Assembly (NCBI GenBank): GCA_001915995.1
Contig: MNRO01000017.1
Location: 22,777 to 54,776 of the forward strand
DNA length: 32,000 nt
Direction: 5' to 3'
From: Clostridium sp. 26_21
GTDB taxonomy: Bacteria > Bacillota > Clostridia > TANB77 > CAG-508
Numbering within the stretch: the first letter of the stretch is position 1; each line of letters begins with the position of its first letter. A program made the translations under genes and the position numbers. The notes below the pieces were generated by a model. The model was not told where the DNA came from. It did not search any database and saw only the letters and a list, made by a program, of their open reading frames with translations. Positions 21,674 to 21,814 of this stretch are shown in pieces.

Positions 21674-21814
21674 TAGAACAAATAAGAAAAATTTCCAATT
21701 TTTCTTTGATTTGTTCTCGCCCAATTTGAGTTTCTGAGCGAAGCAATGAAATCTCAAAGGGCTAGCGATTGTAGCTATTTATATACTAGGAAAGTATAAC
21801 TTTCCTAGTATATA
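21674..21814. repeat. Intergenic hairpin-rich repeat, copy C (most complete stems)
   Basis: See the alignment with copies A and B in the findings. It contains the 16-bp palindrome TATATACTAGGAAAGT/ACTTTCCTAGTATATA. Confidence 0.9.

Follow-up and report, generated by a model that had tools for sequence, protein, structure and literature searches.

A mobile, hairpin-ended intergenic repeat of gut Clostridia, probably a palindrome-associated (PATE-like) transposable element

Three copies of one repeat in a Clostridium contig

What is the hairpin-rich sequence that occurs three times, each time between genes and in the same orientation, in a 32,000-nucleotide stretch of Clostridium sp. 26_21 (contig MNRO01000017.1; this whole stretch is called the window below)? 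The initial annotation of this DNA had left the choice between a family of small structured RNA (sRNA) genes and a modular repeat resembling BOX, RUP or the MITEs (miniature transposable elements with inverted repeats). It had also named the palindrome-associated transposable elements (PATEs), derived from insertion sequences (IS) of the IS200/IS605 group, as candidates for checking. We found that the repeat family is mobile DNA, gained and lost cleanly, with no duplication and no scar. At about 126-140 nt, each copy is probably a transposable element that is non-autonomous and moves by PATE-like single-strand transposition with an enzyme supplied from elsewhere. Among the candidates named, the PATEs are the ones that we now favour, as a target pentamer beside the element pairs with a sequence inside it.

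The three copies are read on the minus strand of the window, which is also the strand of the adjacent genes (the gene strand), from a left end (LE) to a right end (RE). Their boundaries were set from the comparisons of filled and empty sites described in the next section.

5596-5721, minus strand: copy A, 126 nt; target pentamer at 5722-5726; terminator of the MCRA gene at about 5726-5751
16116-16242, minus strand: copy B, 127 nt; target pentamer at 16243-16247; terminator of the type IV coupling protein (T4CP) gene at 16247-16290
21675-21811, minus strand: copy C, intact, 137 nt, matched by nhmmer with 117 bits; consists of LE hairpin, guide, linker, middle hairpin and RE hairpin

In the window there are three occurrences of each of the core motifs TTTGTTCTCGCCCRATTT and ATCTCAAAKGGMTAGYGATTGTRGC, where shuffled sequences predict 0.09 and 0.00, and nhmmer with a profile of the family matched copies A, B and C only. 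The copies can be aligned end to end, with identities of 90.5% between A and C, 78% between B and C and 71% between A and B. Copy B departs from the other two in the interior of hairpin P1 and in the loops of hairpins P2 and P4 (the RE, middle and LE hairpins, respectively); it has a short, GC-type RE interior and a degenerate LE hairpin, in which P4 is imperfect. Copy A has lost the tip of its LE hairpin, which shortens P4, and carries several substitutions in the core, and is thus a decaying copy. The initial annotation had described three same-orientation copies at essentially these positions, with A and C nearly identical, B differing in its loops and P4 varying among the three, and this description held throughout.

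Filled and empty sites

Beside copy C lies a gene for a 59-aa protein resembling the small acid-soluble proteins (SASP-like), which is encoded identically on many contigs. The spacer between this gene and murF measures 265 nt in the window and in loci L116, L120 and L121, which are filled, and 128-130 nt in L117, L118 and L119, which are empty. When aligned, the locus shows a clean gap of 137 nt in L117-L119, while the flanks are 96-100% identical. On the gene strand the empty site reads GCTTATTTAT followed directly by AGTTGC, and the filled site reads GCTTATTTAT, then the element (ATACTAGG...TTTGTTCT), then AGTTGC.

A second site of this kind lies in the window itself, where it is unoccupied:

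24750-24759, minus strand: empty target site behind the recR terminator; insertion point 24754/24755, target TTAAT at 24755-24759

A copy occupies this recR site in L116, L120, L121 and L122 but not in the window, L117, L118 or L119, and here too the flanks are 96-100% identical. A third clean pair was found between two convergent terminators, with L094 filled and L047 empty and flanks about 88-90% identical. At the position of copy B, the locus of a related species (L092) lacks the element, but its terminator also differs; exact-protein look-ups beside copies A and B returned no informative strains. Since the copy C and recR sites are polymorphic within the window's own species, and independently of each other, the sequence comparison indicates that the repeat is still moving.

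The junctions also speak to how it is inserted. The recR site shows no TA duplication, and the dinucleotide preceding the right end is TA, AA or CA across 75 copies, while the opposite junction is constant; we therefore conclude that insertion does not duplicate the target.

Beyond the window, a core pattern of 21 specified bases matched at least 112 stretches in the one-genome-per-species contigs of GTDB. At least 108 of these lie in about 27 metagenome-assembled genomes (MAGs) of uncultured low-GC gut Clostridia/Clostridium (24-34% G+C); the other four, in high-GC genomes, were discarded as chance matches. An nhmmer profile built from the pattern matches gave 125 matches in the 850 kb of these loci, among them copies that the pattern misses as well as diverged, truncated and decayed ones. 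As lower bounds, the MAGs CAKOVS and CAQPRV hold at least 14 and at least 12 copies. The family thus has about 120 or more copies and occupies well over a hundred unrelated intergenic sites, a spread for which the initial annotation had proposed to look. Several contigs or loci end inside or at a copy (L010, L038, L062, L065, L112, L056 and L068), which suggests that the repeat breaks short-read assemblies of its host genomes.

A target pentamer matched by a proposed internal guide

All sites are consistent with an element that inserts exactly 3' of a gene-strand pentamer. In 74 of 97 non-redundant copies the junction pentamer is TTTAT, whose background frequency is 0.65% per position, and the exceptions are mostly truncated copies or one-base variants. 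Every empty site already carries its pentamer, which therefore belongs to the target and not to the element. Inside the element, directly behind the LE hairpin, stands the complementary ATAAA, and in folds the target forms the base of that hairpin.

Copies in which the internal pentamer has changed are rare. The copy at the recR site carries ATTAA, and its target, TTAAT, pre-exists in the empty sites. From an alignment and a wider regular-expression search, we found ATTAA paired with TTAAT (L052, L079 and the recR site) or with CTAAT (L047), making four sites; ATGAA paired with TTCAT (L032); ATTAT paired with ATAAT (L040); and AGAAA paired with GTTCT (L069) or with CTTCT (L091, a copy of the sister family 2 described below). 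In one further AGAAA copy the flank does not match, and in two GTAAA copies a G.T wobble is kept. Thus, in eight of nine cases an altered internal pentamer stands behind a matching altered target, in addition to the two wobbles. Only about 1 in 10 of the ATAAA copies has a flank that deviates at any of the four inner positions, so the eight matches in nine cannot be put down to chance. The outermost position is loose (ATTAT, GTTAT), and hence probably four of the pentamer's bases count.

Copies sit behind terminators and follow the gene strand

In the window, each copy lies directly behind a terminator. For copy C, where the terminator stem ends at 21817 and TTTAT follows, the relevant features are:

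21817-21859, minus strand: intrinsic terminator hairpin of the SASP-like gene, found by terminator scan; also present in the empty sites and outside the element
21812-21816, minus strand: target pentamer TTTAT, resembling a transposon-adjacent motif (TAM); the tail of that terminator, immediately 5' of the LE

On the plus strand the same target reads ATAAA. This placement is a feature of the whole family: a hairpin of -8 kcal/mol or stronger was predicted in the 45 nt upstream of the target for 79% of 80 non-redundant copies, compared with 8.8% of the controls, which were 1,481 intergenic TTTAT sites from the same loci. The median upstream fold energies were -13.9 and -2.0, respectively (Mann-Whitney p = 7e-31).

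Of 99 copies, 84 have their LE side towards a gene's 3' end; the RE side may face a promoter (in the window), a ribosome-binding site (RBS) 5-30 nt away (L043, L069 and L004) or a convergent gene. The initial annotation had seen in every copy a slot just behind a terminator and just before a promoter; the first half of this extends family-wide, and the second half does not belong to the element. The murF promoter, TTGCAA-17-TATAAT, is present in the empty murF site too, so that promoter adjacency is a property of pre-existing sites. An element-borne promoter was likewise rejected, as no -35/-10 is conserved at a fixed place and a promoter scan showed no enrichment over shuffles (147 against 145); across the copies, neither a terminator nor a promoter of the element's own was found at a fixed position.

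About 87% of the copies are oriented like the gene and the leading strand. The sign of the GC skew is as predicted at 105 of 118 loci and throughout the window, whose plus strand has a skew of -0.26 at 25.7% G+C. This bias matches the preference for the lagging-strand template that has been reported for IS200/IS605 elements (PMC5027513).

As a consequence of their sense placement behind terminators, the copies must often be part of mRNAs. In L069 (4380-4720, minus strand), one copy, with target GTTCT and internal pentamer AGAAA, lies between a T-box-like leader (AAGGTGGTACCGTGAG... followed by a terminator) and the RBS of the downstream gene, so it must be co-transcribed with that gene. In these small genomes the element may influence transcriptional read-through, the stability of mRNAs or the structure of operons, and its presence or absence could be used as a strain marker.

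Anatomy and folding of the element

Read on the gene strand, the order is the target TTTAT, the LE hairpin, ATAAA, a linker, the middle hairpin and the RE hairpin, which ends in TTTGTTCT. In copy C these parts are:

21783-21811, minus strand: LE hairpin (P4), ATACTAGGAAAGT-TAT-ACTTTCCTAGTAT
21778-21782, minus strand: internal pentamer ATAAA, the proposed DNA guide; adjoins the LE hairpin on its 3' side and is the complement of the target pentamer
21763-21775, minus strand: conserved linker, GCTACAATCGCTA on the minus strand and TAGCGATTGTAGC on the plus strand, near-invariant in an 84-copy alignment
21719-21762, minus strand: middle hairpin (P2), GCCC-TTTGAG-ATTTC...GAAA-CTCAAA-..GGGC
21675-21717, minus strand: RE hairpin (P1), with a constant outer stem AGAACAAA/TTTGTTCT; boundary from filled/empty pairs

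Elements start with A(T/C)A(C/A)TAGG and end with TTTGTTCT, and with the target their left end takes the form TTTAT followed by A.A.TAGGAAAGT...ACTTTCCTA. The base after the right end is A or T in 67 of 67 copies. Terminal inverted repeats (TIRs) are absent, as AGAACAAAT... at one end is not an inverted copy of ...CCTAGTAT at the other, and there is no clear sequence similarity between the LE and RE hairpins. The longest open reading frame (ORF) overlapping copy C has 33 aa and is not conserved. The initial annotation was thus right in seeing neither a convincing ORF nor TIRs, and its three hairpins P1, P2 and P4 are predicted on either strand. The RNA folds of the two strands of copy C reach -54.9 and -54.7 kcal/mol (z -9.2 and -10.0) and the DNA fold -39.5 kcal/mol (z -11.1), and in the minimum-energy folds the linker TAGCGATTGTAGC/GCTACAATCGCTA stays unpaired, as had been suspected from the sequence.

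Covariation across copies, for which the initial annotation had asked, argues that the hairpins are real. In the 84-copy alignment, 97.8% of the cells in the LE and middle hairpins form standard pairs and seven pairs are doubly changed, values that none of 500 shuffles reached; controls in which the pairing was slid were 31-49% paired. The LE hairpin has 97.5% of its cells paired and two compensatory pairs (UA/CG 61/19 and AU/CG 55/24). In the middle hairpin 98% are paired, and most of it is invariant, with one doubly changed pair (UA 75, CG 8) and a compensated variant in L068. No stretch is better conserved than the linker and the middle hairpin, and the 65-nt core is conserved far beyond the end hairpins, an invariance that is in part an artefact of the exact-match search pattern. 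The RE hairpin keeps its outer stem and has an interior of at least three unrelated, self-complementary versions; the family is thus modular in its make-up, as P1 interiors, P2 loops and variants of P4 are interchangeable.

A sister family that shares the ends

In a second family of repeats (family 2), a left hairpin of the kind seen in family 1 (..AATAGGAAA..TTTCCTATT..) precedes ATAAA, and the right outer stem is that of family 1 (AGAACAAT...ATTGTTC); between them lies a different interior: GTGCGCCAAATTTTAC..GTAAAATTTGTGTGCATCCGTTTGAGCGAAGCTC, with a GTGCGCC..GTGCA hairpin plus CCGTTTGAGCGAAGCTC. It is absent from the window. Its members were found at these loci:

L040, about 3110-3300
L041, about 470-660
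L053, about 4950-5160
L091, about 1975-2140
L093, about 995-1200
L009, about 7150-7340
L027, about 5440-5600
and also in L131, L134, L136 and L140

Some family-2 copies abut or interrupt family-1 copies (L091 and L093). If a common transposase acts on the ends, one would predict such a combination of shared ends and different interiors.

A proposed PATE-like mode of transposition

Members of the IS200/IS605 group and the PATEs that depend on them are defined by a set of features: PATEs lack an ORF, TIRs and a target duplication, leave scarless empty sites and have hairpins at their ends (PMC4810608; PMC5027513). Their left end lies 3' of a fixed target of 4-5 nt that pairs with internal DNA, and their top strand is the lagging-strand template (PMC4810608; PMC5027513). 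TTTAT itself is the TAM of ISGst2 from Geobacillus, another Firmicute (PMC10055086). Given that our element likewise has no ORF, TIRs or duplication, leaves scarless sites, ends in hairpins and lies behind a guide-matched target, we propose that it is transposed as a single strand by an enzyme of the HUH (Y1) type.

The likeness to PATEs, such as those of Geobacillus stearothermophilus whose ends are also the ends of ISGst2-5, is thus close: both are short, lack an ORF, TIRs and a target-site duplication, are absent without a scar, carry hairpins at both ends and occur as several non-autonomous families with shared ends. In both, the left end lies 3' of a 4-5-nt target (in our case identical to the ISGst2 TAM) and the target matches internal DNA; a top strand on the gene or leading-strand sequence, two directions that our loci do not separate, would be a further likeness. 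There are also differences. Our element would be cut on the right at the very foot of the RE hairpin, prefers terminator tails strongly and has a highly conserved middle hairpin.

In such a scheme, the element would travel in single-stranded form, by 'peel and paste' as in IS200/IS605. A Y1-type HUH transposase would bind the folded end hairpins of the top strand. Its left cut would follow the target pentamer and its right cut GTTCT, so that a circle is set free and the donor resealed; the predicted circle junction is TTTGTTCT joined to ATA(A/C)TAGGAAAG. The circle would then integrate 3' of a new TTTAT chosen through base pairing with the internal ATAAA. A terminator tail, with its hairpin, T-run and AT, may be a favoured landing site, as it offers TTTAT on the right strand; the terminator structure may also expose single-stranded DNA, and an insertion there may do little harm. 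The middle hairpin and linker may be needed for transposition or may be a passenger, for example the scaffold of a guide RNA. PATEs have been reported often to encode omega RNAs or guide-RNA scaffolds (PMC10055086), and from the analysis of our element, the roughly 100 nt from the linker to the RE, together with its orientation, would allow such a scaffold.

The following observations weigh against this account or limit it. No cognate TnpA was found for the element: among 807 neighbouring ORFs no multicopy ORF recurs, be it a transposase, TnpB-, IscB- or RAYT-like protein (RAYT being the transposase associated with repetitive extragenic palindromes, REPs) or a recombinase. A metagenome scan based on the LE that skipped both known interiors returned variants of families 1 and 2 and two chance matches, and pairs of LE and RE enclosing a gene were false positives only; this search covered the 850 kb of neighbouring DNA, the metagenome scan and close IS200 relatives. 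The sole Y1 transposase seen in the lineage is a truncated IS200-type tnpA of 95 aa in one lineage MAG (L075, 5362-5649, minus strand), located by tblastn with an IS200 TnpA sequence. Full-length relatives lie on very short contigs (L124, 1-706; L126, 1-971), with GC-rich end hairpins CCACCCGT..ACGGGTGG. The comparison with IS200 ends, which the initial annotation had suggested, thus came out negative: these hairpins are unrelated to our element, and we rejected the L075 gene and its relatives in L124 and L126 as the mobilising enzyme. The IS200 copies of L124 and L126, the latter with two of them head to tail, have similar left and right ends; in our element the LE hairpin is unlike the RE hairpin, which also sets it apart from PATEs and IS608-type elements. 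Its guide lies 3' of the LE hairpin and works as a plain Watson-Crick extension of the stem, with the target becoming the base of that stem. In published structures of IS608, the guide reportedly lies 5' of the hairpin foot.

Three of the supporting observations also admit other readings. The covariation of guide and target could in principle arise after insertion, through mismatch correction in a long palindrome. The preference for terminators could reflect selection instead of targeting. The orientation bias is not separable from gene orientation, as in 8-kb loci where gene direction disagrees with the locus majority the copies are split 9 to 8. Taken together, the lack of an autonomous partner, the unlike hairpins, the 3' guide and the predicted right cut at the hairpin foot lead us to file the element as a variant that appears to work like a PATE, and not as a proven member. 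The steps that lead from a mobile, guide-matched, hairpin-ended element to a Y1 transposase and a single-stranded circle are ones that we infer.

It is conceivable, if rather unlikely, that the repeats represent an undescribed branch of guide-directed single-stranded DNA transposons, with a Watson-Crick guide 3' of the LE hairpin, a specialisation on terminator tails, a 65-nt passenger module (for example a scaffold for a TnpB-like protein acting in trans) and an enzyme other than the canonical IS200/IS605 TnpA. Were this so, target choice could be reset by a single base change. In any event, the natural variants of guide and target provide a read-out of guide-directed target choice by comparative genomics. 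For IS608, biochemistry has established such target choice, on which the current interest in programmable insertion builds.

Comparison with other repeats

REPs and their composite forms (bacterial interspersed mosaic elements, BIMEs), with the RAYT enzyme (TnpA-REP), are also high-copy intergenic palindromes, often lie behind genes and are thought to be handled as single strands by a Y1 HUH enzyme, as proposed here. They are, however, single GC-rich palindromes of 20-40 nt with a conserved 5' tetranucleotide, often in alternating pairs, whereas our element is a fixed, AT-rich unit of three hairpins and about 137 nt with distinct left and right ends, and no RAYT gene was seen. BOX, RUP and the MITE-like repeats of Firmicutes such as bcr1 share with it a modular, hairpin-forming, intergenic sequence of 100-150 nt in low-GC Gram-positives, frequently transcribed together with the genes beside it. 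TIRs and a duplication of TA or more, which are found in RUP and typical MITEs, are both lacking in our element, and BOX varies in the number of its boxB modules whereas here the module order is fixed, a distinction made on the descriptions of these repeats. The bcr1 repeat of the Bacillus cereus group is associated with a TTTAT motif. We therefore retain only part of the earlier proposal of a BOX/RUP/MITE-like repeat: the element is mobile, with clean presence and absence, and, having neither TIRs nor a duplication, it is not of the BOX, RUP or DDE type.

The family appears to be undescribed so far, and the initial annotation, which had recognised no known family, was borne out. With Rfam 15 at gathering thresholds the window gave only a tRNA and a signal recognition particle (SRP) RNA, so that none of its families, IS605-orfB-I/II, HEARO, group II introns, T-boxes and riboswitches included, reached its threshold on the element; permissive scans of copies A, B and C and one family-2 copy gave only chance-level hairpin matches. 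Nothing similar was found in PLSDB plasmids, INPHARED phages or IMG/VR viral contigs; three matches to a 19-base pattern in viral contigs were in high-GC contigs and were dismissed as chance. A literature search by sequence string returned no match.

Alternative explanations

The other half of the earlier proposal, that the copies are structured sRNA genes or cis-acting parts of mRNAs, takes the middle hairpin and linker as the working part and the spread as secondary; one example would be a scaffold resembling omega RNA that uses the flank beyond TTTGTTCT as its guide. The strong fold and the conservation of the 65-nt core far beyond the end hairpins are in its favour, as are the sense copies in transcribed places (the L069 copy between leader and RBS, and those 5-30 nt from start codons), a lean of the wobble pairs of the middle hairpin towards the gene strand (13 versus 6) and the omega RNAs often encoded by PATEs (PMC10055086). 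We nevertheless consider it unlikely. Over all pairs the wobbles number 29 on one strand and 21 on the other, and, taken as a test of strand, fold energies and wobble pairs are symmetric and favour neither RNA strand; the hairpin sequences thus give no sign of strand-specific selection at the RNA level. No Rfam family was matched: a full-length match of copy C to IS605-orfB-II, at 13.7 bits (E = 6.5), was rejected, and did not recur on A or B. The copies have no promoter or terminator at a fixed position and no TnpB- or IscB-like multicopy ORF nearby, and the conservation of their core is in part a product of the exact-match search pattern. Moreover, they are dispensable between close strains, and orthologous copies decay, even in the GGGC arm of the middle hairpin, where copy C of L116, L120 and L121 has three changes. 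The PATE-like reading would explain a repeat that annotators of many gut Clostridia MAGs might otherwise take for a candidate sRNA.

Sites of a site-specific recombinase (attC-, dif- or Xer-like, or of the IS110/IS91 type) acting on folded hairpins would equally have hairpin ends, orientation specificity and neither TIRs nor a target-site duplication, and no transposase has been found. The GTTC at the right end also resembles the IS91 target GTTC/CTTG. This GTTC, however, lies inside the element, in both arms of the RE hairpin, and is absent from the empty sites of the window. The copies are scattered over more than 100 unrelated sites, with no arrays and no single attachment site, and no recombinase gene recurs among the 807 ORFs, all of which makes a recombinase site very unlikely.

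If the repeat were a conventional MITE or of the BOX/RUP kind, a DDE transposase (for example of the IS630 type) would move it in double-stranded form and duplicate TA. This would fit the modular make-up and the high copy number in AT-rich intergenic DNA, and in two filled/empty pairs a 2-nt TA overlap is possible at the junctions. Such a duplication is ruled out by the junction statistics and by the recR site, which has none: only some of the 75 copies have TA before the RE, and AA and CA are also common. Together with the lack of TIRs, the strong orientation bias and a 5-nt target that co-varies with internal sequence, this renders a DDE element highly improbable.

That the copies are remnants of a terminator-targeting retroelement such as a class C (IIC) group II intron is barely credible: these introns also insert in sense just after intrinsic terminator hairpins, and related metagenome DNA contains the reverse transcriptase (RT) of a group II intron, yet they are ribozyme retroelements of 0.7-2 kb or more, the 137-nt element matches none of the Rfam group II intron models and has no intron domains, nothing like domain V/VI included, and the pairing between its internal pentamer and the target is one of DNA within a single strand.

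Neighbouring genes and minor observations

The genes flanking the three copies, all on the minus strand, are those that the initial annotation had named: upstream MCRA/oleate hydratase, T4CP and the SASP-like gene, and downstream DUF2207_C, Metallophos and MurF. The T4CP gene (domains T4SS-DNA_transf and TraG-D_C; 16291-18345, minus strand) stands amid housekeeping genes (SbcCD-like, DnaJ, MurF), and other conjugation genes are not evident near it.

On a gut metagenome contig (L125, 568-2467), an ORF for a group II intron RT (RVT_1 and GIIM domains) lies directly upstream of an IS200-type TnpA gene. A solitary palindrome of the LE type, TTTATATAATAGGAAAGATATACTTTCCTATTATATAAAA, was found at L075 254-282, the only such case in the 850 kb. 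In L007, a segment of about 3 kb is repeated together with its ORFs and contains two copies of the element (1424-1561 and 4361-4500); a further paralogous unit of that locus has none. The two structured RNAs matched by Rfam in the window are:

27460-27558, minus strand: small SRP RNA (Rfam, 56.6 bits)
29371-29443, minus strand: tRNA (Rfam, 62.4 bits)

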